Part shown: positions 3,207 to 25,336 of the stretch, in pieces
Position numbering within the stretch: the stretch's first letter is position 1
Layout of the letters: every line of letters starts with the position of its first letter
IMG/VR virus record: IMGVR_UViG_3300029118_000005
DNA from: a virus
Length of the DNA stretch: 64,000 nucleotides
Strand: one strand, 5' to 3'
Made by a program: the position numbers and the translations under genes
Notes under the pieces: generated by a model
The model's database searches: none
What the model was told of the DNA's origin: nothing
The model's input: only the letters and a program-made list of their open reading frames with translations

Positions 3207-3715
3207 TAGTTTTTTTCCACGCTTTGCTGCAACACCTGCAGATAGTAAGACGTTTCATTCAGTGCTTCATTCATGATTCCACTCACTTGATAGTCAGCAG
3301 AATTTTCATCTGGTGATCCGTTTGGTTTCGTTTTAATTTCTGAATGCAGCCAAATTCTTGCTCCAAACGGCAAGTTAAGTTCGTTTCCGCCAGAGTCTTT
3401 TGCATGTTTAGCTAAGATGAGCGTAGCATAATTGTTTGTGCTGTCGCTTCCCCATGCTCGCATGATAGCGTTTTTTAGCTGTGATGTGATTGTTCCCCAA
3501 AACTTCACAGGATTGCTATAAAGCACTTCCATTTCACCGCTTTCTTTCGGGATTTTTTTGCCTTCATCATCGGTATAAAAATATACCTCCCCATCAGCTC
3601 CAACGTAACTCTCGTACTGAATGTCACCATTTTCGTCTCTCAGATATCCAGGCACTTTTCCGACTTGGTACGAATACCACATCTGTTGGCGATTTCTTCT
3701 ACTTGTCCGCGCCAT
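3206..3715 (-). CDS. Head-tail joining (head-closure-like) protein, position-based
   Basis: 169-aa ORF within the connector gene block. Confidence 0.35.
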   Translation of the reverse strand: MARTSRRNRQQMWYSYQVGKVPGYLRDENGDIQYESYVGADGEVYFYTDDEGKKIPKESGEMEVLYSNPVKFWGTITSQLKNAIMRAWGSDSTNNYATLILAKHAKDSGGNELNLPFGARIWLHSEIKTKPNGSPDENSADYQVSGIMNEALNETSYYLQVLQQSVEKN

Positions 3716-3974
3716 CTTTTAACTGCTTGTATACCTGATTGACGCCAGTGCTAGACAAACCTGATACAATGCCGACAGCAATCGCATTCAGAATATCCTG
3801 CGCTGGGAAGTCTGGTATGACATACATTCCTAAGACTCCCAGAATGCCGCCAAAAGCACCCACAATGACCGGAATGTAATTATCCTTGACTGCTGGAATT
3901 GTCTTGGCTGCAAGCCCAATTAAATAGCAGATAACTACAATTGCAATCACGGTAGTCATGCTCGATATATCCAT
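3699..3974 (-). CDS. Holin-like small membrane protein (3 predicted TM helices, charged C-terminus)
   Basis: Likely start is ATG 3974 (MDISSMTTVIAIVVICYLIGLAAK...) with GGAGG upstream. Hydrophobic segments are followed by KQLKDGADK. Resembles clostridial phage holin families. Confidence 0.5.
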   Translation of the reverse strand: MDISSMTTVIAIVVICYLIGLAAKTIPAVKDNYIPVIVGAFGGILGVLGMYVIPDFPAQDILNAIAVGIVSGLSSTGVNQVYKQLKDGADK

Positions 3975-3975
3975 T

Positions 3976-4281
3976 TTATTTACCTCCTCCACTCTTGATG
4001 TGTAACTCTTTGATCTCTTCATACATCTTTTTAACCATACCGTTTCCGTTTAAATCACGGTAGGCTTCATACATTTCTTCGAAGTTCTGATAATCATCGG
4101 ACGGTATCTCCCCCAGCTGTATGTATTCTGCGTAATACTTGATCAGCTGCACACGCAATAACAGCATGGTTCCTCTCTCATTTGCGTTCTTGCCTTTCTT
4201 CTGTTGCTGCAGAAGCCAAACAATGTATCCTAAAGCAATCGGAAGGATGATTGTGTATGTTTGTAATAAAAATTCTTGCAT
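3976..4281 (-). CDS. N-terminally membrane-anchored protein, unknown function
   Basis: TM segment TYTIILPIALGYIVWLL followed by a basic stretch. AGGAG RBS present. Lies directly upstream of the holin-like gene. Confidence 0.45.
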   Translation of the reverse strand: MQEFLLQTYTIILPIALGYIVWLLQQQKKGKNANERGTMLLLRVQLIKYYAEYIQLGEIPSDDYQNFEEMYEAYRDLNGNGMVKKMYEEIKELHIKSGGGK

Positions 4282-4386
4282 TTTTTATATCTCCTGCTTG
4301 TATTTTGCATATTGCCCACCGCCGCTTTAATATGCACCCTGCCAGCGTATTCGCAAACATTGCAAACACACTGGCGAACATCCTTC

Positions 4387-7857: not shown

Positions 7858-9348
7858 TTATACTTTCCCAGTTATAGGGCTTGTTTCCAACTGATCTATT
7901 TGTCTATCAGTTGGTTCACTGTCTTCCGTTGCTGTGGTTCCGCTTGATGCAGCAGCCCTTTGTACTGCTTCTATCATTTCCTTGCTGTCGTTCCATGTAG
8001 CCTCGGTGTCTTCAAAACCGTCAATAAATTTAAGTGCATGTCTGCCATGTACACCAGTCTTAATAAGGGTTGATAAAGCATTTGCTTTAACAGACATGTC
8101 ATAGTTCTTTCTTCTTGAGAAGTGGAAATTGATATCTCCAACATGTACTCTTTTGATTGGGTCATCGTCTTTAAGCACATTTGATGGAGTTAATTGGAGT
8201 ACTTTTATGATAAGTTTAAGCTCCTCTCTCTGTGCCTTGCTCACAATCTGTTCCTCGCGCACAGCGTCAATCTCAGCTGCACTCCATCCGCTAGACATAT
8301 CCATTGCTGTTCCTGTGGAACCACCGCCTTCTGAATCTTGTTGTGTAGGTACTTTACATTTTTGTAAAATTCTTCGCCAGCGTGTATCTATCGCTGTTAA
8401 TGTTGCGTTTGTATCGAATGCATTAGATAGTGCCTTGATTTGTGGTGTCTTTCCATCTGGTGTTGTGCTAGTAAGCACCCATTGCCCCGACTTCACTTCT
8501 ATAGGTTTTTTAGTTTTGGGGTCAACTGGGAAATCAACATCATTGCCCCACCATATCTCCTGAGTTTGCTGCGCTGTAAGGTTTGCAAAATCAGAGACTA
8601 GCGTGTTAAGTTCGATACAATCTGATATTTGTCTCTCAAAGCAGCCCGTTCTGTCAACGGATCTCTCGTATTCGACTATCGCTATTTTTTTGAGTGGATT
8701 TAATGATTTTTTAACAATTTTGCCTTTTGAGACTTCAAAGCGCATCTTAGGAGTAAAACACGTAAAATATTGTTCACCATTGTCCGTTCTGTATGTTACT
8801 CCCATTAGCTTCTTTTGTTTGGCATCATTGCTATATACACAAAAAGCATATCTTGGGTCTAGCGTATATATATCCACAAGTGCTTCGTCATCTTCTTCAA
8901 AATCGGTTTTAACGTCAACAAGTCGGTATCCTACACCTACTTTTTCAACAAAATTGCCAAGCTCCTGATTCTTGTAACCTATGTCGCAAGCATTTGTAAG
9001 CATTTCGTTAAGTGCAGATATTCCTTCGTCGTCTAAGTCTGCTGATGTTTTGTGAGCGTCTTTGTCAGATCTCTGTATCAGCATTGCTGGCGTTCCCCAA
9101 AAGTACGCCATTTTGAAATCAGTAATGTAGTTTGCGGCATTATCAGTTACTTTAATATTGATCTCAGGGCGAACAATTTTGGGTCTGTCCAGCGGTTGAT
9201 CGCCGGCTTCAAAATCTATAAGATATTGCATCTCTAACCGATTAAATTTATGCTTCTCATATGCTTTTGACAATTCTTTGATTATGTTGTCGGCAGTGAT
9301 TTCTTTTGCGTCCGTATATATCTTTTGACGTCCCTTTAGCATCCACAT
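7858..9348 (-). CDS. Portal protein (SPP1 gp6-like)
   Basis: 496 aa. Position upstream of the Mu-F-like gene and N-terminal similarity to SPP1-type portals. Confidence 0.85.
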   Translation of the reverse strand: MWMLKGRQKIYTDAKEITADNIIKELSKAYEKHKFNRLEMQYLIDFEAGDQPLDRPKIVRPEINIKVTDNAANYITDFKMAYFWGTPAMLIQRSDKDAHKTSADLDDEGISALNEMLTNACDIGYKNQELGNFVEKVGVGYRLVDVKTDFEEDDEALVDIYTLDPRYAFCVYSNDAKQKKLMGVTYRTDNGEQYFTCFTPKMRFEVSKGKIVKKSLNPLKKIAIVEYERSVDRTGCFERQISDCIELNTLVSDFANLTAQQTQEIWWGNDVDFPVDPKTKKPIEVKSGQWVLTSTTPDGKTPQIKALSNAFDTNATLTAIDTRWRRILQKCKVPTQQDSEGGGSTGTAMDMSSGWSAAEIDAVREEQIVSKAQREELKLIIKVLQLTPSNVLKDDDPIKRVHVGDINFHFSRRKNYDMSVKANALSTLIKTGVHGRHALKFIDGFEDTEATWNDSKEMIEAVQRAAASSGTTATEDSEPTDRQIDQLETSPITGKV

Positions 9349-10323: not shown

Positions 10324-11499
10324 ATGGCTAGAAAAAAGATTGGGCCAATAACCAGTTTAGGAAATGGAGACAAACTTACTGTTCAAAAAAGTTTACCGCT
10401 GTTTTCCCTGTGGCGTTCTGAGCTATCGCTTGCAGAATTTAAAATACTCGATACATACCTATCGCGCATAGATAGTCACAAGCCAGAGAAACGAGTTGTA
10501 GTATTTGAAAAAGGTGAGCTTGAAAAGATTCTAGGAGTAAAAAAAATCAACAACCAAGACCTCAAGGCAAGATTAAAGCATCTTATGGGAAATGTAATAG
10601 AAGTGCAAGATGATAGTGAAAAACAAGGTTTTAGATTGGTGACGTTATTTGAAGAAGCAACGGCAGAACAAGATGATTACGGTCTGTGGCAAGTAAAGCT
10701 AGAGTGTTCTCAAAAAGCAATGAAGTATTTTTTTAATATTGAAAACCTCGGATATCTTCGGTATAAGCTGCGCTGCATAACATTACTCACAAGCCGTTAC
10801 ACTTATATCATGTTTACGTATCTTGAACAAAACCGTTTTCGAAAAAAATGGGAAGTGCAGCTTGATGAATTAAGGCAAATACTTGATTGTGATAAAGAGG
10901 AACTGTATAAAGAATACAAGTTTTTTAATCAAAAGATATTGAAACGTGTTCAGAAAGAAATGGATGAAAAAACTGAATGTCGGTATACATACGAACCCAT
11001 TAAGAAAGGGCGAACGGTAGTTGGTATAAGATTTGAAGTCGAAACATTGCCTATATTGGAAGTGCAAGTTCCAGAAGCGCCAGTGCCAAAGGAAGATACA
11101 TTAGATCGTCCGCTCTGGGAAAGTGCATTGAATGAATGGGAACTATCACAGGCACAGCTAGAAGAGATACAGACGCTACTCGTAACAGTACCAGTTCATA
11201 AGCTGCCAAGTTGCCAAAAGGAAGATCTGGAAAAGGCTTACTACCAGTATATAGCACAGAAAGCTGCTGAAATTAAGCGAAGAAATGAGCAAAAGCCGAT
11301 TCGTAGTCGATTTTTGTATTTGCGAAAGCTTATACAAGGAGATGTATCATCGAAAGCAAAACAATCATCGCAGGCAGCTGCTAAAGGTACTCAAGTATTC
11401 CAAAATTTCACAGAGCGTCAAGACAACAATTACTCGGAAAAAATCATGAATAAGTTAAAAAGTGATTTAAAGGAATTTCAGGAAAATCAAAGTTGCTGA
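10324..11499 (+). CDS. Plasmid-type replication initiator (Rep_3-like, iteron-binding)
   Basis: 391 aa. Winged-helix-like segments (LSLAEFKILDTYLSRI; TSRYTYIMFTYLEQNR...WEVQLDELRQIL; KKGRTVVGIRFEVE) are typical of Rep_3 initiators. Iterons lie upstream. One of the few plus-strand genes. Confidence 0.7.
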   Translation: MARKKIGPITSLGNGDKLTVQKSLPLFSLWRSELSLAEFKILDTYLSRIDSHKPEKRVVVFEKGELEKILGVKKINNQDLKARLKHLMGNVIEVQDDSEKQGFRLVTLFEEATAEQDDYGLWQVKLECSQKAMKYFFNIENLGYLRYKLRCITLLTSRYTYIMFTYLEQNRFRKKWEVQLDELRQILDCDKEELYKEYKFFNQKILKRVQKEMDEKTECRYTYEPIKKGRTVVGIRFEVETLPILEVQVPEAPVPKEDTLDRPLWESALNEWELSQAQLEEIQTLLVTVPVHKLPSCQKEDLEKAYYQYIAQKAAEIKRRNEQKPIRSRFLYLRKLIQGDVSSKAKQSSQAAAKGTQVFQNFTERQDNNYSEKIMNKLKSDLKEFQENQSC

Positions 11500-11979: not shown

Positions 11980-13689
11980 TTAATAGATGCTGTTAATGAT
12001 TCTTGTTGGCCTTGGTTTTCTACGCTGTATGCGTAATGCGAAGTTTGCAAATGTATCTGGTACATCATCAAGCTGCTTTTTTCCGGTTGCCGAGTATTGG
12101 GCCAAAAGTGACATCATAATTCCATATGGTTCACGTGGCTTGTACATTTCCATATCCTTAAAAACGATATTTTGCAGTATCCAATTCGAACATTGAAAAA
12201 TTCGGGCTTCTTTGTTCGATTCAGTCATAGGATGGCTTATATTACAAATCCATCCTTTTTCTAAAACTCTTTTGGCAACTTCGTTGGCAACTCGGTCACC
12301 ACCATTGTTTCCTTCAAATTCACAATCCATAACTTTGTTGTTGACTAAAATGTTAGCAGAATTTTCATACTGTGCCTCATAGTCTGTAGAATTACTGCAT
12401 ATACAATCTATGCAATAATAGAGGTTGCCATATTTTAAAAATACTGGAAGAACAAAAAAATCAGTTCCACTAGACTTTGTATCACATTGCGCAGTAATCA
12501 ATTCTGGAGTTCCCTTAGGAAGTTCTTTATAGCGTTGAATTTTTTCTCCAGGAAATAATAGTCCTTCTCTTTCAATTGGTTCTTGCATAAAAAGACACTT
12601 GTACGAGATTTCGTCCATTGTCAGCTCTTGATCTGCAAAGAACTCTTTCGTGAATCCACCGACTGCATAATTGAAATTGCTCTCACCAGTAATGGGATCA
12701 ACTGCAGGTACAGATATAATTTTTGTGCGAGGGTCATCTTGATAAAGAATTATTACTCGACCAATTACGTCTTGGTTTGACCATCTAGTAGCCTGCATAA
12801 TTTCTTTACATGATTTTCCATCACTATCTACAGTTTTACGCTGCTTTGCATCTACAGAATAAAAACGCCATATTTTATCAAGATAGTTTTTATTTAACGC
12901 CTGTTCGCTGTTACCAATTAAGTCGTCTGATAGCAAGTATTTGTTTGCTCGCACCTTACCTGAACTGTTTGCACCAATTGATGTTGTTTGTAGCGATGGG
13001 AATGGTTTGTAGCTTCCCACGTTAAACTGTTGCATCAATGCATTTGTTGATGTAATTTTTAAACCTGGGAAGATTTCGTTCCACGCATATTCAATAGTAT
13101 CGTCTATCATCTGATAAACACCATCATAATACATTCGTGTAATATCGCCAGAATGAGAGCAAAATAAACTATAATCTTCTGGGAACCACCCTATAATCGC
13201 TGAATGAAAGAATTTTAAAAGGGTGGTTTTTCCAGTACCAGGAGGCAGAGAAATACACAGTCTATCATAACGATCATCCAACATTCCTTGGTAAGCTTCG
13301 ATAAGCTTAAATTTTTCAAACTGTTTAATTTTTGGCTTATAAAACATGTTCCTAGGATCACGTTTACGTTCCAAAAACAGTAAATAGTCATTGAATATTC
13401 TTGCTCTCGCACCATTCAGATAGGTCTGCCAATACAGTTTGTCCCACTCGTCACCCTCTACTTTTCTGTTGCGGTTGCAGTACCATCGGACGTAGCTATT
13501 TACATGGTCGCCATACCCTCTATACGCATCAAGATTCTTAAAATCGCGATTTGGTATAAACTCATTGGCATCAAGCAGAATCAGTCTTGCTCCGCCACAT
13601 AAGGTGTTGAGCTGACTGTATGTAGGCTGCATGATAATCTGGCGCTGTATATTCTCCACACGTTCTTTATGCTGTCTTAGCTCTAACAA
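11980..13689 (-). CDS. terL: Terminase large subunit
   Basis: 569 aa. Walker A LPPGTGKTT and a C-terminal nuclease-like region. TTG start with AGGAGGAG RBS. Confidence 0.85.
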   Translation of the reverse strand: MLELRQHKERVENIQRQIIMQPTYSQLNTLCGGARLILLDANEFIPNRDFKNLDAYRGYGDHVNSYVRWYCNRNRKVEGDEWDKLYWQTYLNGARARIFNDYLLFLERKRDPRNMFYKPKIKQFEKFKLIEAYQGMLDDRYDRLCISLPPGTGKTTLLKFFHSAIIGWFPEDYSLFCSHSGDITRMYYDGVYQMIDDTIEYAWNEIFPGLKITSTNALMQQFNVGSYKPFPSLQTTSIGANSSGKVRANKYLLSDDLIGNSEQALNKNYLDKIWRFYSVDAKQRKTVDSDGKSCKEIMQATRWSNQDVIGRVIILYQDDPRTKIISVPAVDPITGESNFNYAVGGFTKEFFADQELTMDEISYKCLFMQEPIEREGLLFPGEKIQRYKELPKGTPELITAQCDTKSSGTDFFVLPVFLKYGNLYYCIDCICSNSTDYEAQYENSANILVNNKVMDCEFEGNNGGDRVANEVAKRVLEKGWICNISHPMTESNKEARIFQCSNWILQNIVFKDMEMYKPREPYGIMMSLLAQYSATGKKQLDDVPDTFANFALRIQRRKPRPTRIINSIY

Positions 13690-13774: not shown

Positions 13775-14752
13775 TTATTTTCTTACTATGTCTTCTCTGT
13801 TTACCCAACCGTAGACGTTATCGCCTATGATGTGATACTGATGCTTGCCACTCTCACAAATACCTGTTACAGTTGCAACCTCTGGAACTGCAGTGATTGG
13901 CCTGTCGGACCATGCCGACATATACTGTTTATTGCCTGTGAATTGGACTTTATCGCCTAAGTTTATAACTTGTGCGTTAGCATTCGGGGAATAGCTGTAA
14001 TAGCCACTTCCTGCCTTTGTAAAGGCATATCCGCATGAAGCGCCGGGCCATACAATCTTATACCAACCAGAAGCGGTGATTTCGAGGACTTCTACGGCTA
14101 CAGAAGTCTTGATTGTATCAAGCTTCTTTGCAGATGTATCTGCTCCTGTACAGATGTTCATAGGTGTGAGTGCGACTGCTGTTCCAATACCCTTGCCGCA
14201 GAGTGTAGTGTTACCAGTTGAGATAATCTCGCACTCCACTTTAGAACCATCATCCAGTACTACTACAGTATGTCCCTGTACAGTTGTACACAGGATATCT
14301 CCACGCATCTGATATGCTGAGGACTCTGTACATTTTGGCTCACGGATGATTTCAAACTCATCTGTAGCATCCAAAACCTCAACTTCGTTGGCAGTAGAAA
14401 ACCACGGAATGTCGCGCTGCAAAGCATATGCCACGCATACACGTACAAGGCTGCTACAGTCTGTCTCCACTGGAGTGTTAACCTTGCTGCAATCCCATCC
14501 GTACTGCTTAGCCTTGTCGTACAAATCCCAAGACGTAGACTGATCATACCCGATATTATTATTTGCGCACGCTGCTTCCATACAGATTGCGATACGCTCA
14601 CGGATATTTGCGTCCTTCGCGCGGATTATAACCCAACCCTTATCGTGCAGATACCATGGCTCAATCGCCACTTCAAGTCCTGTCTGGTCACCTGGCTGTC
14701 CACCCTTCAATTTTCCGTTCTCGTCAATCCTTGCCGATCCTACTCTAACCAT
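13775..14752 (-). CDS. Endolysin: NlpC/P60-like cysteine peptidase domain plus C-terminal SH3b-like repeats
   Basis: ETDCSSLVRV resembles the NlpC/P60 catalytic DCSG motif. The C-terminal segments GWYKIVWPGASCGYAF and YGWVNREDI are SH3b-like. Confidence 0.6.
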   Translation of the reverse strand: MVRVGSARIDENGKLKGGQPGDQTGLEVAIEPWYLHDKGWVIIRAKDANIRERIAICMEAACANNNIGYDQSTSWDLYDKAKQYGWDCSKVNTPVETDCSSLVRVCVAYALQRDIPWFSTANEVEVLDATDEFEIIREPKCTESSAYQMRGDILCTTVQGHTVVVLDDGSKVECEIISTGNTTLCGKGIGTAVALTPMNICTGADTSAKKLDTIKTSVAVEVLEITASGWYKIVWPGASCGYAFTKAGSGYYSYSPNANAQVINLGDKVQFTGNKQYMSAWSDRPITAVPEVATVTGICESGKHQYHIIGDNVYGWVNREDIVRK

Positions 14753-15178
14753 TTAATTTCCTCCGTGTTTATTCCATATTCTTTCATATTCATCTACCCA
14801 TTGTTGAGCAGAGTAACAGCGATGTTTCTTTATTTCTTCTCGGACATCGCTCCACATCACAAAATAAGTATTTATTATAGACTTTCGAACATAACAACTG
14901 TATACTTGGCTAAGATGATATATATGTTGGTTACCAACAAATGCCTCAGTATTATCAAAGCGGCTTCTTTCATCAGTCAAGCTTCTGTCGTACATTTCTG
15001 TAAGCCCCATATATAAACAAGCTAGCTTGTAATAGTCCGACTTCTCTGATTCTATTCCTGTTGGAAAATATCGAAATTGAATTTTTTCAGCAGGTAGCTT
15101 TTGTATGCCATCGGCTAAGTTGCTTTGTGGATCACAATATTTTAGATTCTCCATTTTCCTCCCATCATTTTTATTCAA
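14753..15178 (-). CDS. Hypothetical protein
   Basis: 141-aa ORF, tightly packed between its neighbours. Confidence 0.4.
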   Translation of the reverse strand: MNKNDGRKMENLKYCDPQSNLADGIQKLPAEKIQFRYFPTGIESEKSDYYKLACLYMGLTEMYDRSLTDERSRFDNTEAFVGNQHIYHLSQVYSCYVRKSIINTYFVMWSDVREEIKKHRCYSAQQWVDEYERIWNKHGGN

Positions 15179-15698
15179 TATACCAATCTTCCGCTAAAAG
15201 ATCTTCCACGCTTGGGAGATACATTGCAAGTGAACCATCAATATAACGCATCTGAAGATATGGATCGCAGTTAAGAAGCCCTTCTCCGTTATCAACTTCT
15301 AAATAGGCATCCACTGTGCCTATATCACAAGGATGGCCAGCTGGTAAACCTTTGCGATATAAAACAAAACGTCCGCTTCCATACCAACACATTCGGGCGA
15401 CTTTATAACCTTGCTTTAGTAAATCTAGCGCTTTGCTAAATGTGAATAATTGTTTTCCGTTAGCTGTTTGCGATTCACTAGAATTATTTGCAATTTCCCA
15501 GTCTTCCGCAAGCATTCCCATAAAAATATAAGTCATATCAGCAGTGTCAGGAATGTTAAAAAGTTCTTTAAGCTTTCCTGAATCGTGTTTTGCTATTAAG
15601 GTTTTCTTTGATTTGTCATAGTACCAGACTTCATTCCATTTCTTTCTTTTCATTGGAATGCCTTTTTTCATATTGGAAAATGCAGCTCTGAAATCCAT
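15171..15698 (-). CDS. Protein with two DUF2829 (Tad2-like) domains
   Basis: Two repeats follow the DUF2829 pattern. The first is FRAAFSNMKKGIPMKRKKW...MLAEDWEI. The second is FSKALDLLKQGYKVARMCW...EDLLAEDWYIE. Confidence 0.6.
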   Translation of the reverse strand: MDFRAAFSNMKKGIPMKRKKWNEVWYYDKSKKTLIAKHDSGKLKELFNIPDTADMTYIFMGMLAEDWEIANNSSESQTANGKQLFTFSKALDLLKQGYKVARMCWYGSGRFVLYRKGLPAGHPCDIGTVDAYLEVDNGEGLLNCDPYLQMRYIDGSLAMYLPSVEDLLAEDWYIE

Positions 15699-15703
15699 AG
15701 TGC

Positions 15704-16261
15704 TTAATCCTCCTCGTAGATGATATCTAGCCCATACTCAACTGCCGCATCATGTTCGATGCAACATCCTCTTGCATTTTCCCATCCTTTGCAGAAATAA
15801 GCAGCATGACATAAACTCATATTTGTTAATGATGTTGCAAGGAAACAAAGTGGAATCTGTGTCACTCCTCTTTCTTTCATTTTCTCACTGTTATACCACT
15901 CGTCTGTAAAAAGTGTATTTATAATCTCATAGCCTTTTTCTTTCAATGCTGCAATTGCCTTTTCTCTTGTCGCCTTAATTTCTTCATCCGTTTTTCCTGC
16001 CATTGGCTGTGAAATCATAGCCATCTTAGCTCTGCTTTTAAGACTCTCACTGTTCAAATGCCAAACAATCCAATTATCGGATGCAATGTTTGAAAAAGTA
16101 TAATCTGGATTAGCTGTTTTTCTAATGTCAAACTCCTCACCATCTTTTGTGTGGATGATGATGGTCTGCTTTTCTTTGGACCAGTACCAATAACCTACCC
16201 ATGACGGAAGCTTTATCAGTGCACCCTGTTTCATCAATCCAAATGCTTCTGAAAATTTCAT
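15704..16261 (-). CDS. DUF2829 (Tad2-like) domain fused to a DUF4406 / nucleoside 2-deoxyribosyltransferase-like domain
   Basis: N-terminus FSEAFGLMKQGALIKLPSW...SDNWIV. The C-terminus SQPMAGKTDEE...GWENARGCCIEHDAAVEYGLDII matches the DUF4406 pattern. Confidence 0.55.
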   Translation of the reverse strand: MKFSEAFGLMKQGALIKLPSWVGYWYWSKEKQTIIIHTKDGEEFDIRKTANPDYTFSNIASDNWIVWHLNSESLKSRAKMAMISQPMAGKTDEEIKATREKAIAALKEKGYEIINTLFTDEWYNSEKMKERGVTQIPLCFLATSLTNMSLCHAAYFCKGWENARGCCIEHDAAVEYGLDIIYEED

Positions 16262-16274
16262 GCGTACTCCTCCT

Positions 16275-16712
16275 TTAAACTATTAAGGCTATAATTGTTG
16301 TCGCTAAAAATACAATAGTTGTAAGCATAAATATTTTTTGATTGCGTTTTAGGCCATAAAGAGTGTTGAATGCATCGGCAACGATCATTTGCTCATTGGA
16401 ATACCGGGCTGTATAATTGCTGCCGAGTAGTTCTTTTAAAAAATCATCTTGTATGCGACTCAGGCGTTCAAAACGCTTTCGATAATTTCTAAGTTCCCAT
16501 CTAAGATCTATTTCTGTATAAGTACTCCATTTATCGCTTTGAATGGCTTCGCAAAACTTTTTGTATCCTTTGTATTCTTCACTACTTCGAATTACATGAG
16601 AAGAACAATTCAGAAATTCTTTTGCTTCTTCTAGGCGCAGATACTCCTCTCCTGTCCATATCATTACATTTAGACCATTTTTTGAAGCTTTTAAGGCGTC
16701 TTCGTATGTCAT
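16275..16712 (-). CDS. C-terminally membrane-anchored protein, unknown
   Basis: 145 aa with a terminal TM segment IFMLTTIVFLATTIIALIV. Confidence 0.4.
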   Translation of the reverse strand: MTYEDALKASKNGLNVMIWTGEEYLRLEEAKEFLNCSSHVIRSSEEYKGYKKFCEAIQSDKWSTYTEIDLRWELRNYRKRFERLSRIQDDFLKELLGSNYTARYSNEQMIVADAFNTLYGLKRNQKIFMLTTIVFLATTIIALIV

Positions 16713-16856: not shown

Positions 16857-17246
16857 TTACTCGTGATGAGTTGCCTTAAATCCCCATTCTGGCAAGAAAT
16901 TGATCTCATAATGGAACTTGTCTACCTCCGAACCAGAGATGTCTTCGACCACATACATGGTGTAGTCGTTCAAATACACATAATCTTTCTGATATTTGCC
17001 TTCGGCAGTCTCAATAATGACTTCGAGTTCATTTGATGAATTGTTCTTTAATGCAAATGTTCCAGTCAGCTCCAGAAGAACTGTGTCGGTTCTTGCGTTC
17101 AGAACAGTAAGCTTCCTAGTCACGTTGAAGTTGTCTGCCTGCTTAGAGATATTAGAACTTACCTGATCAGCTTCTGTACAGCCAATGGCTGCACCAGAAA
17201 GCATCACTGCGGCTGCAAGGGTAACAATTAGTCTTTTTAATTTCAT
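16857..17246 (-). CDS. Lipoprotein (beta-sandwich lipoprotein type), possible superinfection-exclusion factor
   Basis: Signal peptide plus lipobox (MKLKRLIVTLAAAVMLSGAAIGC). Confidence 0.65.
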   Translation of the reverse strand: MKLKRLIVTLAAAVMLSGAAIGCTEADQVSSNISKQADNFNVTRKLTVLNARTDTVLLELTGTFALKNNSSNELEVIIETAEGKYQKDYVYLNDYTMYVVEDISGSEVDKFHYEINFLPEWGFKATHHE

Positions 17247-17971
17247 TGTCCATGTCCTCCATTGGTTGATTCGTTAAATCTTTTTACGCCATTTGAAAAA
17301 ATATCGGGGTCTTTTTCAAAACAAATGTAATGGCGACCAGTATTCACAGCTGCTATTGCTGCTGTCATGCTTCCAGCACAGATATCAAGTACTGTGTCGT
17401 TTGGGTTACTATATGTCTTAATCAACTCTTCGATTAGTTTAACTGGCTTTTGTGTCTGATGATATCCGTTTTCATTTGAAAATCTCCACACAGATCTTGG
17501 ATATCTTTGTGTGCTTTCATAGTCAGTTGGTGTATAGTTTCCGTAGCATTTTGATGTTGCTTTCTGAGTTTTTCGAACCCGTTTAACAGGCATACCGTTT
17601 TTCATTTGCGGATTGTATGTTGGCAAACACTTATAGAACACGCAAATATCTTCATGCGCTCTAAGTGGCATACGGTTCGCGTTGAGAAATCCAGATGCAT
17701 TTGCTTTTTCATAAATCAAATTATAGTGCCACATTTTGCAATTGCTTTTCATCAAGTCTGCCGTGAACATACCAGATGCAAAGAGGATAATTGCACCATT
17801 GTCTTTGATTATGCGGTTAATGCCCCCCCATAAGTCATCAAACGGAATCGGAGTATCCCATTTATTTCTTGTAATCCCGTATGGAAGATCTGTGCAAACC
17901 ATGTCAATCGACTTGTCAGGTATACTTTTCATTCCATCTCTGCAGTCAATGTTAATCATGACATCGATCAT
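17243..17971 (-). CDS. DNA N6-adenine/N4-cytosine methyltransferase (orphan)
   Basis: DPPY-like motif (CTDLPYG) near the N-terminus and a C-terminal AdoMet motif (VLDICAGSMT). No restriction partner is visible. Confidence 0.8.
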   Translation of the reverse strand: MIDVMINIDCRDGMKSIPDKSIDMVCTDLPYGITRNKWDTPIPFDDLWGGINRIIKDNGAIILFASGMFTADLMKSNCKMWHYNLIYEKANASGFLNANRMPLRAHEDICVFYKCLPTYNPQMKNGMPVKRVRKTQKATSKCYGNYTPTDYESTQRYPRSVWRFSNENGYHQTQKPVKLIEELIKTYSNPNDTVLDICAGSMTAAIAAVNTGRHYICFEKDPDIFSNGVKRFNESTNGGHGQ

Positions 17972-18114
17972 CGGTACACAACCTTCTTGCTAACCTCGGC
18001 AACGCTGATTCCGGCTGCAGTTCGCCGTACCTCAACATCTTTACCTTTTTTGAGTGCCGCCGCTATAAGGGCGGCTTGCTCCACAACTTTTGTTTGCAAA
18101 TCATCTTTAATCAA
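17968..18114 (-). CDS. Small ORF (48 aa), possibly real
   Basis: The TTG start overlaps the upstream stop (GTTGATTAA), and the TGA stop overlaps the methyltransferase ATG (ATGA). It fills the gap exactly. Confidence 0.3.
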   Translation of the reverse strand: MIKDDLQTKVVEQAALIAAALKKGKDVEVRRTAAGISVAEVSKKVVYR

Positions 18115-18472
18115 CTAGTCCTGCCTCCTTCCACGCCTTATACAGTTTCTCACCATTCCATGCAATCCAATCAATCATCTCTTCATTCACTGCCCATCCC
18201 TGCATCGAAAAATTTGAGTTGTAGACAAGTCCAGACTCGTTAAGGAAAGCGTGTACAATTTCATGCCTAAGAACTTGTTTCATTCGTCCTGCTGGGTCAA
18301 TTGCGATTGGATCACAGTCTGGGCTGGTAGTCTGGTCGATGATGAAGATTTTTTTACTATATGGGTCAGTCCATCCATCACAACCCTCACACGTTTTATA
18401 CTGATCGTGTTGAACTACTGTAATCTGATACTCACATCCGAGTATCGTTATACTATTTTTTGGATTCATCAT
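18107..18472 (-). CDS. Putative zinc metallopeptidase (HExxH)
   Basis: RHEIVHAF motif in a 121-aa protein. Confidence 0.45.
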   Translation of the reverse strand: MMNPKNSITILGCEYQITVVQHDQYKTCEGCDGWTDPYSKKIFIIDQTTSPDCDPIAIDPAGRMKQVLRHEIVHAFLNESGLVYNSNFSMQGWAVNEEMIDWIAWNGEKLYKAWKEAGLVD

Positions 18473-19121: not shown

Positions 19122-20132
19122 TTAGAACAAGTGTTTATAGAACAGTATTTCTCGGATGCTGCCAGACATGTAGTGCGATAAACTTTTTACAATCACTCCA
19201 TGTTTGCTGCCGTAATCAGTTTTTAGATATTCTTCAATCAGAACCTTGTTACTTTCAAGGTCATCATAGTCATCCTTCAAGGATTCTGGAGACTTGATGT
19301 AGCTTCGTGTAACTCGTTTAAGGCTCTCATCTGATAGATTCTTAGCGTCAAAGCCCGTAGATGCTTTGTATTGGTGGTTAAACTCAAAAATAATAGCAGT
19401 CAGGCTGTTATATTCCTTGTCAACCCAGTCATTTTCCTGTTGCTCTGTGGTAAAGATGTTTTTCGGATTGTTTGAATACAGTCTGTGAAGCTCATCTTTA
19501 AGAACTGACTCCTTAGACTTGATAAAATCATCTGGATCAACATCAGATTCTTTCTTTTGGGTCTTGTGCACTGAGTTTTGAGCACTTTTAGTGCGCGAAA
19601 CCATGTATTTATCTCTATTGTCAACTTTAGTTGATAATAGAGCATGTTCTTTATCTGTATCACTTAAACTACTGTTATACTTAATATCTATTGTATTACT
19701 TATCTGTGGACTTTTTTCAACCCCACCCTGTTGATTTTTCTCCATACCCCCACATGGATTTTTTTCCATGTTAGAAGAAATAGATTTTTCATTGACAAAA
19801 GAATCAAAAAATTTCTGAGTGAGGATAATGATTCGCTTGTCGATTTCTTTAGTGTTTTCTTTGTATTCAAAGATTCTTTCAATCAATCCCAGTTGTTCAA
19901 ATTTTAAAAGCATCTTTTGGATACTATTTTCTTTTAAGCCAATGAAGTTGGCAAAATGCTTGTTAGAAGCAAAACAGCCTTTGTCTTTTTGAGTAAGGCT
20001 GTATATCTCAATTAACAAGAATTTCTCTCTAGGACTTAAATCCGGTGATAAATAAAGACGTTCTGGAATCCAGATTCCTTTAAAATCTCTGCCCTCCGAT
20101 ATTACTATTTCTTTTTTTGCCTTCTCTGACAT
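19122..20132 (-). CDS. Winged-helix (HTH_36-like) protein, possible replication organizer or regulator
   Basis: The N-terminus IPERLYLSPDLSPREKFLLIEIYSLTQ...CFASNKHFANFIGLKENSIQKMLLKFEQLGLIER follows a typical phage HTH_36 pattern. Confidence 0.45.
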   Translation of the reverse strand: MSEKAKKEIVISEGRDFKGIWIPERLYLSPDLSPREKFLLIEIYSLTQKDKGCFASNKHFANFIGLKENSIQKMLLKFEQLGLIERIFEYKENTKEIDKRIIILTQKFFDSFVNEKSISSNMEKNPCGGMEKNQQGGVEKSPQISNTIDIKYNSSLSDTDKEHALLSTKVDNRDKYMVSRTKSAQNSVHKTQKKESDVDPDDFIKSKESVLKDELHRLYSNNPKNIFTTEQQENDWVDKEYNSLTAIIFEFNHQYKASTGFDAKNLSDESLKRVTRSYIKSPESLKDDYDDLESNKVLIEEYLKTDYGSKHGVIVKSLSHYMSGSIREILFYKHLF

Positions 20133-20411: not shown

Positions 20412-21224
20412 TTAAATATTCCTCCATTCATCTTCCGAATATTCTTTTATTTCAGTTGACTTTTTAGGTAAATTGTATTTATCACACCATTTACGTATCG
20501 CATTGTCCGACACACCAAACATAATTCCGATCTGAGTAAATGGAACAGTCCTGATTAGTCTCTTTAACTCCTCACGGGTTATATTTCTTAATGGAGTGAT
20601 CGTTTTCTTTGGAGACTTTTTCTTCTTTTTCTTTTTTCTGTGATATTTTGAATAACAAAGATAGCAAAGATTGCTTTTATTGTTTTTTCTAATCGTTTTA
20701 CCACATTTTTTACATGTGTTTCTAGCTCTCTCTTTTATTCTTTCTTTTACTTTTTCTGAATTATATACTCCGAAGTTGTCTGTTAAACTATGACAATTAG
20801 GACATAGAATTTGCAAGTTTTCCAACGAATTGTTATCATGATTTCCATCAATATGATGTAATTGTAATTTAATCGGTTTTCCCATCCATTCGGAATTTCC
20901 ACACAATTCGCATCTTTTTTCTTTATACCCAAGTTCTATGAGCTTATTTTTAAGTTTGTGACTATTAACTTTTGTATTTGGCATCAACTTTGACTGAATG
21001 TCATAAACTTCCTTTCGATTTTGGTTGCATTTCAGTATATAATTGCGTTTATTTTCTTCAAATTTAGTGGTATCTAAATTGTATTCTTCTATGATTCTTT
21101 TTAGTGTTACAGTACTACTCGCACTTTTTATTCCTGCTAATTCCAATATTGATTTATATGTACTATGCGTGTCAATCAAGGATTGTAATTCTTCAGGAGT
21201 GAAATTATACAGCTTACTACTCAT
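20412..21224 (-). CDS. HNH homing endonuclease with C-terminal HTH
   Basis: CELCG...LHHIDGNHDNNSLENLQILCPNCH is the HNH motif. Inserted between the two tRNA groups. Confidence 0.8.
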   Translation of the reverse strand: MSSKLYNFTPEELQSLIDTHSTYKSILELAGIKSASSTVTLKRIIEEYNLDTTKFEENKRNYILKCNQNRKEVYDIQSKLMPNTKVNSHKLKNKLIELGYKEKRCELCGNSEWMGKPIKLQLHHIDGNHDNNSLENLQILCPNCHSLTDNFGVYNSEKVKERIKERARNTCKKCGKTIRKNNKSNLCYLCYSKYHRKKKKKKKSPKKTITPLRNITREELKRLIRTVPFTQIGIMFGVSDNAIRKWCDKYNLPKKSTEIKEYSEDEWRNI

Positions 21225-24400: not shown

Positions 24401-24560
24401 TAGATAACCTCCTGTTCTTGTGTTCTATCTGGCATGTAACCATTTGGGTAACGTTTATTCGTTTACGATTGATTCCGTGTCCTTCACGGCACAACTGGCA
24501 AACCAGTATGTCACCGCAATGCTGACATTCATCGGTTATTTCTTTTGTTGATATTTTCAT
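24378..24560 (-). CDS. Small zinc-ribbon protein
   Basis: Likely start is ATG 24560, overlapping the upstream TGA (ATGA). Contains the motif CQHCGDILVCQLC. Confidence 0.35.
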   Translation of the reverse strand: MKISTKEITDECQHCGDILVCQLCREGHGINRKRINVTQMVTCQIEHKNRRLSNENHFTV

Positions 24561-25336
24561 TGGCTTGATAAATTTTTGGCAGCTATTGCGTTTTCGTCGA
24601 TTAGACCATGTTCGATCCACTTTTCGACAAATCGAGCTTTTAGTGCTGAAAGCTCTGCTTCCATGTTGTCTTCTAGCGCAGCTCTATAATCATCAACTAG
24701 CACTCTTGCTGTGAATATAATCTCTTCTGTTAGGGAATCCGCATCGTCTAACATGGCATCATACATCTCTTCAAAATCTGATTTTGAAGAATAAAAATCT
24801 CCTCTGAGAAGGGACTTCCCAAATTCGATTAACGCTTTTCCACTTTGTTCAATGTCCTTTAATATTTCTTCAGAATTATCTTCAAATAGAATGCCTTTAT
24901 CTGAAACTATGAATTTGGCAATCTGATCCACACTTACAGTAAATACTTCTGTATTTGGAATCCTGAACTTTGAAAAATGTTGATGTAGTTTCTTTTCGTT
25001 TTCTTTATAGTTTGTATGCCATGGACTGATTAGAATTTTATCTACTGGGCATTGCATGTAGTCATTGATGTAATGTGTTAAGATAGAAGTTCTGTTTGCT
25101 GGAAATGAGGACATTCCAATTTTGCTGACTCCATTTCCATACCCAATAGCATATATAATTCCCACAACAGAATTAGGTTTCTCTTTTTGAAGGTCTTTGA
25201 TTTTATTAAATTCATTCTCTTCAAATATTTTTATATTATTCATATAAACACCTACCTTCCTGGTATGCCTTGGCATTATGGCAAAGAAACTGTCAAGGCT
25301 CACAGCTTTCGGGTCGCGATTCCCTATCTTTGCCAT
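24557..25336 (-). CDS. T5orf172 / GIY-YIG-superfamily domain protein
   Basis: GIIYAIGYGNGVSKIGMSSFPANR...LHQHFSKFRIPNTEVF fits the T5orf172 pattern. Confidence 0.5.
   Translation of the reverse strand: MAKIGNRDPKAVSLDSFFAIMPRHTRKVGVYMNNIKIFEENEFNKIKDLQKEKPNSVVGIIYAIGYGNGVSKIGMSSFPANRTSILTHYINDYMQCPVDKILISPWHTNYKENEKKLHQHFSKFRIPNTEVFTVSVDQIAKFIVSDKGILFEDNSEEILKDIEQSGKALIEFGKSLLRGDFYSSKSDFEEMYDAMLDDADSLTEEIIFTARVLVDDYRAALEDNMEAELSALKARFVEKWIEHGLIDENAIAAKNLSSQ

Follow-up and report, generated by a model that had tools for sequence, protein, structure and literature searches.

The 64,000-nucleotide (nt) stretch analyzed here (the window; IMG/VR record IMGVR_UViG_3300029118_000005) derives from a tailed phage of the human gut and carries two adjacent minus-strand genes, gene 1 and gene 2 (Table 1), which we tentatively relate to the evasion of nucleotide-signaling immunity. 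An earlier note on this DNA had proposed that the pair encodes three Tad2-like (DUF2829) domains, one of them fused to a DUF4406 domain. Both open reading frames were found where that note placed them, and every peptide motif that it quoted occurs in the translations. The locus consists of one canonical Tad2 domain, two "mini" Tad2-like domains and a DUF4406 domain. The proposed count of three was thus right (Pfam, hhalign, and AlphaFold2 (AF2) with Foldseek), while the two mini-domains turned out to be truncated and to lack the beta2-beta3 insert. The suggested domain assignment by Pfam and profiles recovered DUF2829 in gene 1 and DUF4406 in gene 2; the N-terminal domain of gene 2 was missed by Pfam and detected by hhalign.

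Gene 1 scored 82.3 bits against the Tad2-like family PF11195 (gathering threshold 25 bits), the best stretch covering residues 86-174; two stretches were found at E ≤ 1 and one at E ≤ 0.001. Its whole length matched phrog_1048 (1.3e-29). Residues 85-174 are clearly homologous to the characterized Tad2 proteins among the PDB sequences: ModTad2 (9eib, 2.9e-11; 8v3e, 3.1e-11), HgmTad2/AcrIIA7 (8kbi, 5e-6) and SPO1 Tad2 (8sme, 8e-5), with SptTad2 also matched. A word-index homology search with gene 1 returned three relatives only, so an exhaustive search was needed; seeded with gene 1, which has no DUF4406, it yielded 671 cluster representatives at E ≤ 1e-3 and profiles of 52 mini-domains and 124 canonical Tad2 domains. 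HgmTad2 contacts glycocyclic ADP-ribose (gcADPR) through W21, N22, W87, L88, S90, T92 and D93. The counterparts of W21 (W105, invariant in 124/124), D93 (D166, conserved in 122/124), S90 (S163) and L88 (L161) are kept in gene 1. N22, Asn in 105/124 relatives, is replaced by Y106 (Tyr in 2/124 only), W87 by Y160 (Tyr in 11/124), and T92, a variable position, by E165. The pocket therefore looks retained but modified as judged by alignment, and because of the modification its ligand cannot be named; the known ligands of the family are 3' cyclic ADP-ribose (3'cADPR), 2'cADPR, histidine-ADP-ribose (His-ADPR) or cGG. The earlier note's view of Tad2 as a sponge agrees with published work, in which members of the family sequester gcADPR, His-ADPR and certain cyclic dinucleotides. 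Given the homology of the C-terminal domain to experimentally validated sponges and the retention of W105, D166, S163 and L161, gene 1 is probably a nucleotide-signal sponge.

The N-terminal domain of gene 2 remained below the PF11195 cutoff of 25 bits (13.6 bits, E=0.1) and matched phrog_1048 at 6e-15; it shares 36% identity with the N-terminal domain of gene 1 (E 2e-13). The mini profile aligned end to end with the canonical Tad2 profile (hhalign 97%, E about 3e-11), with roughly 25 residues of the beta2-beta3 insert missing from the mini-domain in this profile-profile alignment. The AF2 model of gene 2 residues 1-70 reached a predicted local distance difference test (pLDDT) score of 96.1 and has the N-terminal helix followed by the five-stranded antiparallel sheet that define the Tad2 fold. 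Its top five Foldseek matches in the PDB were all Tad2 (SPO1 Tad2 8wje, ModTad2 8v3e), with template modeling (TM) scores of 0.67-0.73 and probability 1.00, and the next match had probability 0.33 and led to unrelated folds. Matches in the viral structure library BFVD were annotated as Tad2-like/DUF2829. Used as queries against PDB sequences, gene 2, either mini-domain and alignment A1 all returned noise only. As modeled, and according to the profile comparison, the mini-domain is a genuine Tad2 fold, and both mini-domains share with Tad2 the succession of alpha1 and antiparallel sheet ending in a ..DW motif.

The mini subfamily has its own conserved set, K17, G23-Y24-W25, H37, K39, D45-I46-R47-x-T49, Y54-T55, N58 and W64, with the pocket Trp kept, Ser replaced by Thr and Asp replaced by Asn. 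Every subfamily-conserved residue is present in the gene 2 mini-domain. That of gene 1 is a member of the subfamily (E about 1e-25 against the mini-domain hidden Markov model, HMM) lacking the conserved H37, R47 and N58 when the sequence is read against the column frequencies.

Directly upstream of gene 2 a 145-amino-acid (aa) protein is encoded, beginning MTYEDALKASKNGLNVMIW, whose gene is conserved at the same position in L001 and L006 (L numbers denote loci or contigs of relatives, P numbers protein clusters from the homology searches). An alignment of four orthologues matched the mini profile end to end (hhalign probability 90.6%, E 1.3e-6); the protein alone gave no significant match to the mini-domain HMM (hmmsearch, E 0.32). 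It may carry a fourth, degenerate, membrane-anchored mini Tad2-like domain, and we tentatively assign it to the same cluster as genes 1 and 2.

Among the best 150 of the 671 cluster representatives, 25 have a mini-domain followed by Tad2, 7 the same order with extra extensions, 30 Tad2 alone, 51 an uncharacterized N-terminal region followed by Tad2, and a few a mini-domain alone or two in succession. The order found in gene 1, with the mini-domain directly N-terminal to Tad2, thus occurs in at least 32 of the 150 representative clusters, placing gene 1 in a widespread, uncharacterized tandem family (phrog_1048). Related mini-Tad2 tandem genes were detected in isolated phages of Dorea, Mediterraneibacter gnavus and Clostridium. 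Characterized Tad2 proteins, in contrast, measure about 90-100 aa, have a single domain and assemble into homotetramers, and the beta2-beta3 insert missing from the mini-domain provides SPO1 Tad2 with its dimer helix and HgmTad2 with its cGG pocket.

The mini-DUF4406 order was found only in the gut-phage lineage of gene 2 itself (P0001-P0005 and P0007-P0010, 61-95% identity). Since the gene 2 mini-domain is 70-75% identical to those of tandem proteins with an HgmTad2-like second domain, it was probably recruited from that tandem family. We rejected the idea that the gene 2 fusion is a gene-calling artefact or an internal-start product: it is kept down to 61% identity with linkers of differing length, which speaks against an annotation artefact, and a strong Shine-Dalgarno (SD) site (AAAGGAGGAG) precedes the first ATG. 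No comparable SD site stands in front of the internal Met80/Met82, where stand-alone DUF4406 proteins start, and translation should therefore yield the fusion in full length. Among the other N-terminal extensions of DUF4406, some seem to result from spurious read-through of upstream sequence (e.g., P0092, P0114), and part of the "mini-X" proteins are frameshifted assemblies. The final codons of gene 2 contain the SD core of gene 1 (GGAGG) and the intergenic gap is 5 nt, so the two genes are probably translationally coupled.

The presence of DUF4406 in gene 2, as the earlier note had read it, was borne out by PF14359 (23.7 bits, a marginal pass of the 22-bit gathering threshold) and by phrog_355, "nucleoside 2-deoxyribosyltransferase" (4e-21). 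The full-length gene 2 model is of moderate quality (pLDDT 65.5). Structures of the nucleoside 2-deoxyribosyltransferase (NDT) superfamily dominate its Foldseek list, with NDT 2a0k, BcmB 4jen and 8pq* as the top five and DNPH1 and MilB lower (E 3.5e-3 or weaker; query-normalized TM about 0.37-0.42); the ThsB TIR and ThsA SLOG domains are more distant fold neighbors. A diverse DUF4406 profile aligned end to end with BcmB at a non-significant E of about 1. In this alignment F-x-SQPM falls on F-L-AAPF and RGCxIE on PGTHIE, a segment that we take to hold the catalytic Glu of the superfamily, so that E169 is placed on this Glu.

The motifs S84-Q85-P86-M87 and R164-G165-C166-x-x-E169...Y176-G177 are near-invariant in 41 DUF4406 sequences (non-redundant at 70% identity): S84 is found in 41/41, Q85, P86, M87, G165, C166 and Y176 in 40/41 each, R164 in 38/41, and position 169 is Glu in 39/41 and Asp in 1/41. 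In NDT and DNPH1 a Tyr hydrogen-bonds the catalytic Glu and goes with 2'-deoxy specificity, and NADase TIR domains have Phe or Ala at the equivalent position. In DUF4406 the matching residue is Phe (37/41) or Met (4/41). MilB and BcmB presumably also have Phe there, and the MilB F17Y substitution reportedly switches specificity from CMP to dCMP. By analogy, and within a weak alignment, Phe or Met at this position would suit substrates with a 2'-OH, such as ribonucleotides and ADP-ribose derivatives. Compared with the NDT/DNPH1 (Rcl)/MilB-BcmB superfamily, DUF4406 has a putative Rossmann-like fold, and its beta1-loop and G-x-x-x-E motifs can be aligned with those of BcmB; it differs by its much shorter length (about 100-108 aa), by an invariant Cys after the Gly and by the SQPM loop replacing the A/G-P-F loop of BcmB, and the sequence similarity is not significant by itself.

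The P0005 lineage (354 member sequences) has a mini-domain almost unchanged relative to gene 2 and a DUF4406 half at 57% identity that carries SQPV for SQPM, VGC for RGC and Asp for the putative catalytic Glu. DUF4406 may be relaxed or re-specialized in this lineage.

Fusions of DUF4406 with canonical Tad2 occur in six or more other protein clusters and in both domain orders. Among those recovered by the gene 1-seeded search, DUF4406 precedes Tad2 in P0268, P0174, P0169 and P0164 and follows it in P0224, P0228 is a chimeric case and P0172 a remnant; the gene 2 search added P0051/L007, with Tad2 before DUF4406, on a contig that continues upstream into a further domain via a frameshift. The DUF4406 parts of the Tad2 fusions are only 27-39% identical to that of gene 2, which together with the two domain orders implies several independent fusion events. 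The further annotated Tad2 partners in this sample were Sequestin/PF21825 (3 clusters) and a RyR domain (1 cluster), both experimentally validated anti-Thoeris families (PMC12265669; PMC13232231), and Sequestin itself was discovered by using Tad2 fusion to other anti-signaling proteins as a guide (PMC12265669). The functional link between DUF4406 and Tad2 is strengthened, as sequence evidence goes, by these repeated fusions from a query devoid of DUF4406, and their recurrence in other phages makes the DUF4406 module a good candidate for a counter-defence protein of a new kind. Phage accessory genes that are tightly packed may fuse by mere proximity; what the recurrent fusion demonstrates is therefore a common hot-spot and, probably, membership of one functional guild, and the substrate need not be the same.

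The Acb4-Tad2 and Sequestin/PF21825-Tad2 fusions (Tal et al. 2025 preprint, PMC12265669) resemble these proteins in joining a Tad2-type domain to a second small phage-specific module, and DUF4406-Tad2 fusions are about as frequent as Sequestin-Tad2 in the gene 1 search sample. In the window, unlike in those fusions, the partner is joined to the mini-domain instead of canonical Tad2, and DUF4406 has a predicted enzyme-like NDT fold with a conserved acidic residue instead of being an all-helical sponge. The main text of PMC12265669 describes no DUF4406 fusion. A precedent for enzymatic removal is RyDEP (PMC13232231), a phage glycosidase that cleaves 2'/3'cADPR at the anomeric carbon and whose family also has sponge-type members; before it, no enzyme degrading 2'/3'cADPR was known according to the same 2026 preprint. 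The fold of RyDEP is unrelated and uses a His/Asp inverting dyad, in contrast to the NDT-like Glu of DUF4406. A RyR-Tad2 fusion exists among the gene 1 relatives, this one distant protein being the only case; neither gene 1 nor gene 2 has a Pfam match to the RyR/R12 domain (PF02026).

DUF4406 occurs mostly as a stand-alone phage protein and is extremely abundant in gut viromes. Stand-alone DUF4406 adjoins DUF6275 in unrelated backbones, in both orders, and DUF6275 (PF19791)-DUF4406 fusions were found in P0057, P0096 and P0100. A helical protein of 67-68 aa with the motif MRDNC.KKD.DAYDDP.R is homologous to the commonest N-terminal extension of DUF4406, present in 22 of the top 120 matches. Relatives at 61-65% identity have the fusion gene next to an endolysin or holin gene, and its neighbors there are this helical protein and DUF6275, which stand in place of gene 1. 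As DUF6275 and the helical protein adjoin or fuse to DUF4406 in unrelated backbones, DUF4406 is, by gene order and fusion, the hub of a small module with interchangeable or fused members. Neither a DUF6275 gene nor a helical-partner gene was detected in the window by a six-frame profile search. The ideas that DUF6275 is a cryptic Tad2-like domain (hhalign probability <1%), that the helical partner of DUF4406 (here taken as 60 aa) also partners Tad2 (no significant matches on Tad2 proteins) and that genes 1 and 2 form an obligate pair (the pair is kept in close relatives only, L006) were rejected.

In the Bacillus and Staphylococcus phages phi4J1, SpaA1, BceA1 and Waukesha92 a single-domain DUF2829/Tad2 gene directly follows the SPP1 gp7-like head-morphogenesis gene. 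Stand-alone DUF4406 and DUF6275 in L010-L012 occupy the same slot as these phage Tad2 genes, which suggests that the morphogenesis module harbors an accessory-gene hot-spot common to both.

We suggest, as a possibility that falls a little short of an even chance, that the locus is a phage anti-signaling cassette in which gene 1 is a sponge and gene 2 a capture or oligomerization module joined to an NDT-like glycosidase or transferase. The cassette would sit in an accessory slot just upstream of the endolysin gene. Gene 1 would be a two-domain Tad2-family sponge sequestering a TIR- or CD-NTase-derived nucleotide signal, with the Trp/Ser/Asp pocket supplied by the canonical C-terminal domain. 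If its mini-domain stands in for a second Tad2 protomer, two copies of the tandem protein would assemble into a mimic of the Tad2 homotetramer, and the rare replacements of Asn and Trp by Tyr in the pocket suggest a ligand preference unlike that of characterized Tad2 proteins. In gene 2, the mini-domain would serve for oligomerization and/or ligand capture. DUF4406, as a putative minimal member of the NDT/nucleotide N-glycosidase fold, could use E169 to cleave or exchange a group on the anomeric carbon of a ribose-containing signal or its precursor, the candidate substrates being His-ADPR, N7-cADPR, 2'/3'cADPR and NAD+-derived molecules. The broader proposal that DUF4406 proteins are new, widespread phage enzymes that attack TIR-derived signals at the anomeric carbon of ADP-ribose and neutralize them by cleaving the glycosidic bond or exchanging the base is doubtful. 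ADPR might be released from His-ADPR or N7-cADPR, or NAD+ re-formed by transglycosylation with nicotinamide, and the partners of DUF4406 (Tad2-like domains, DUF6275, the 67-aa helical protein) might serve to catch the substrate or to present it. Whether DUF4406 destroys the signal, converts it or does no more than bind it is, like the oligomeric state, ligand, catalysis and anti-defence phenotype, a matter of inference only, and overall the counter-defence interpretation is plausible but unproven.

Several observations weigh against the anti-signaling cassette. The mini-domain of gene 1 is degenerate, and the mini-domain in general has Asn for the invariant pocket Asp and lacks the insert that aids Tad2 dimers. 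The enzyme assignment comes from a model with a pLDDT of only 65.5, with every fold match above E 1e-3 and a BcmB sequence alignment at E about 1, and E169 is Asp in the lineages P0005 and P0268. Gene 1 is not conserved beside gene 2 in more distant relatives, and relatives of gene 2 occur with no Tad2 gene nearby. The most constant neighbors of DUF4406 are DUF6275 and the 67-aa helical protein, not Tad2; as a mostly stand-alone protein with other partners, DUF4406 could be linked to Tad2 through a shared accessory hot-spot and not through a shared pathway. The site beside lysis and packaging genes suggests late expression. The searchable literature yielded no characterization of DUF4406, PF14359, NDT with anti-defence or mini-Tad2 tandems, in agreement with the earlier note, which did not know this architecture as characterized, and no binding, cleavage or phenotype data for DUF4406 or the mini-Tad2 tandems.

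The predicted NDT fold is also compatible with DUF4406 being a nucleotide-pool enzyme, acting as an NMP/dNMP N-glycosidase or nucleoside transferase in phage DNA metabolism or modification, like DNPH1, MilB/BcmB and phage NDTs, with the mini-domain only oligomerizing and gene 1 an unrelated sponge. The filing of phrog_355 as nucleoside 2-deoxyribosyltransferase under nucleotide metabolism, the top fold matches (NDT, BcmB, DNPH1, MilB), the published action of a phage PF05014 NDT on dA in the diaminopurine pathway and the frequent stand-alone position of DUF4406 within packaging or morphogenesis modules fit such a role. It is hard to reconcile with the recurrent independent Tad2-sponge fusions, with the Phe or Met at the position of the deoxy-specificity Tyr and with the size of DUF4406 (about 100 aa), far below that of characterized NDTs; moreover, neither in the window nor in relatives do further nucleotide-metabolism genes adjoin the locus, and we consider a pool enzyme unlikely. 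In another reading DUF4406 would itself be a non-catalytic sponge, or a decoy of SLOG/TIR-like receptors, gene 2 then being a sponge-sponge fusion like Acb4-Tad2 or Sequestin-Tad2 that widens the signal range. Known sponges are short, phage-restricted, homo-oligomeric and often fused to Tad2 (PMC12265669), the RyDEP family has both enzyme-type and sponge-type members (PMC13232231), and DUF4406 is likewise short (about 100 aa), phage-borne and Tad2-fused in both orders, with ThsA SLOG and ThsB TIR among its fold neighbors and Asp for Glu at position 169 in two lineages. The near-invariant Glu, Cys, Ser-Gln-Pro-Met and Arg at positions aligned with the NDT active site look more catalytic than pocket-like, however, and we regard a sponge or decoy as unlikely.

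A cluster unrelated to nucleotide immune signaling, with an anti-CRISPR, lysis-associated or lysogenic-conversion role, appears very improbable. DUF2829 was first reported as AcrIIA7 and HgmTad2 was deposited as "Inhibitor of Type II CRISPR-Cas system", but AcrIIA7 was never shown to bind Cas9, and the ligands later demonstrated for it are gcADPR and cGG. Relatives have the fusion gene between holin and endolysin, and the 145-aa upstream protein possibly combines a mini-domain with a transmembrane anchor; yet neither protein of the pair resembles known lysis factors in Pfam and PHROG searches, and the slot beside the lysis cassette commonly holds unrelated accessory genes.

Genes 1 and 2 are co-oriented and grouped with a DNA methylase gene and further accessory genes. 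NCBIfam and PADLOC gave nothing relevant for gene 1, gene 2 or the diverged fusions, and the sole near-identical GenBank phage record is an unannotated faecal contig. A 121-aa protein of the accessory region (phrog_1233, function unassigned) has the HExxH-like motif RHEIVHAF and a weak BSP-peptidase match and may be a small metallopeptidase. The replication/accessory module contains an HNH endonuclease gene (phrog_10822 at 1e-41) and another gene with weak resemblance to homing endonucleases. Between the structural genes and the terminase gene, the plus strand encodes a Rep3-family plasmid replication initiator (Rep3_N and Rep3_C), which is kept in L001 and L006; from this initiator, the element may be a phage-plasmid. 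In the 94%-related phage L006 a 923-aa gene with a faint LAGLIDADG match is found where the window has the large terminase, and the terminase gene of L006 may carry an intein or homing-endonuclease insertion.

Table 1. Features of the two-gene locus, its surroundings in the window and related loci on other contigs.
Feature	Position	Strand	Remarks
Gene 1	15171..15698	-	175 aa; tandem mini Tad2-like and canonical Tad2; phrog_1048 member
Gene 1, N-terminal mini Tad2-like domain	15480..15698	-	aa 1-73; degenerate member of the mini subfamily
Gene 1, C-terminal canonical Tad2 domain	15174..15449	-	aa 84-175
Gene 2	15704..16261	-	185 aa; fusion of a mini Tad2-like domain with DUF4406
Gene 2, N-terminal mini Tad2-like domain	16052..16261	-	aa 1-70
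Gene 2, C-terminal DUF4406 domain	15707..16027	-	aa 79-185; predicted NDT/N-glycosidase-like Rossmann-type fold
SD site of gene 2	16267..16276	-	read from sequence; 5 nt before ATG
SD core GGAGG of gene 1	15709..15713	-	inside last codons of gene 2
145-aa protein	16275..16712	-	N-terminal ~67 aa possibly mini-like, then helical region, C-terminal transmembrane anchor
ELLD/SH3 endolysin	13775-14752		
TerL	11980-13689		large terminase, 569 aa
SPP1-type portal	7858-9348		
Rep3-family plasmid replication initiator	10324-11499	+	
N6/N4 methylase	17243-17971		
121-aa protein	18107-18472	-	possible small metallopeptidase
Replication initiator	19122-20132		
HNH endonuclease	20412-21224	-	
Homing-endonuclease-like gene	24557-25336	-	weak match
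DUF4406 and DUF6275	L010-L012, 4001-4570		between minor capsid and scaffold genes
DUF4406 and DUF6275	L013-L016, about 3585-4327		after TerL
DUF4406 module	L003, 5527-6543		
DUF4406 module	L001, 6001-7037		
923-aa gene	L006, 7013-9784		in the place of the large terminase gene

Sponges and signal-degrading enzymes are the main known viral routes past nucleotide-signaling immunity (Thoeris, CBASS and related systems), and only one enzyme family cleaving the very stable cADPR-type Thoeris signals has been reported so far, in 2026. The Tad2 family and Tad2 fusions are already known, and the DUF4406 module is the genuinely open, testable part of this locus: DUF4406 is encoded by human-gut phages, had thousands of near-identical copies in the homology search and is repeatedly fused to Tad2. 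If DUF4406 acts on immune signals, a new enzyme class would be added to the counter-defence repertoire, and if it does so by cleavage or exchange, this would be the second, mechanistically distinct class of Thoeris-signal-degrading enzymes after RyDEP. DUF6275, the helical partner and the mini-Tad2 domain would then become three more candidate families, and a new probe would be available for still-unknown TIR-derived signals in gut Firmicutes. Even under a rival reading, the locus introduces a large unstudied tandem-Tad2 family (phrog_1048) with a heterodomain organization unlike the Tad2 homotetramer model.

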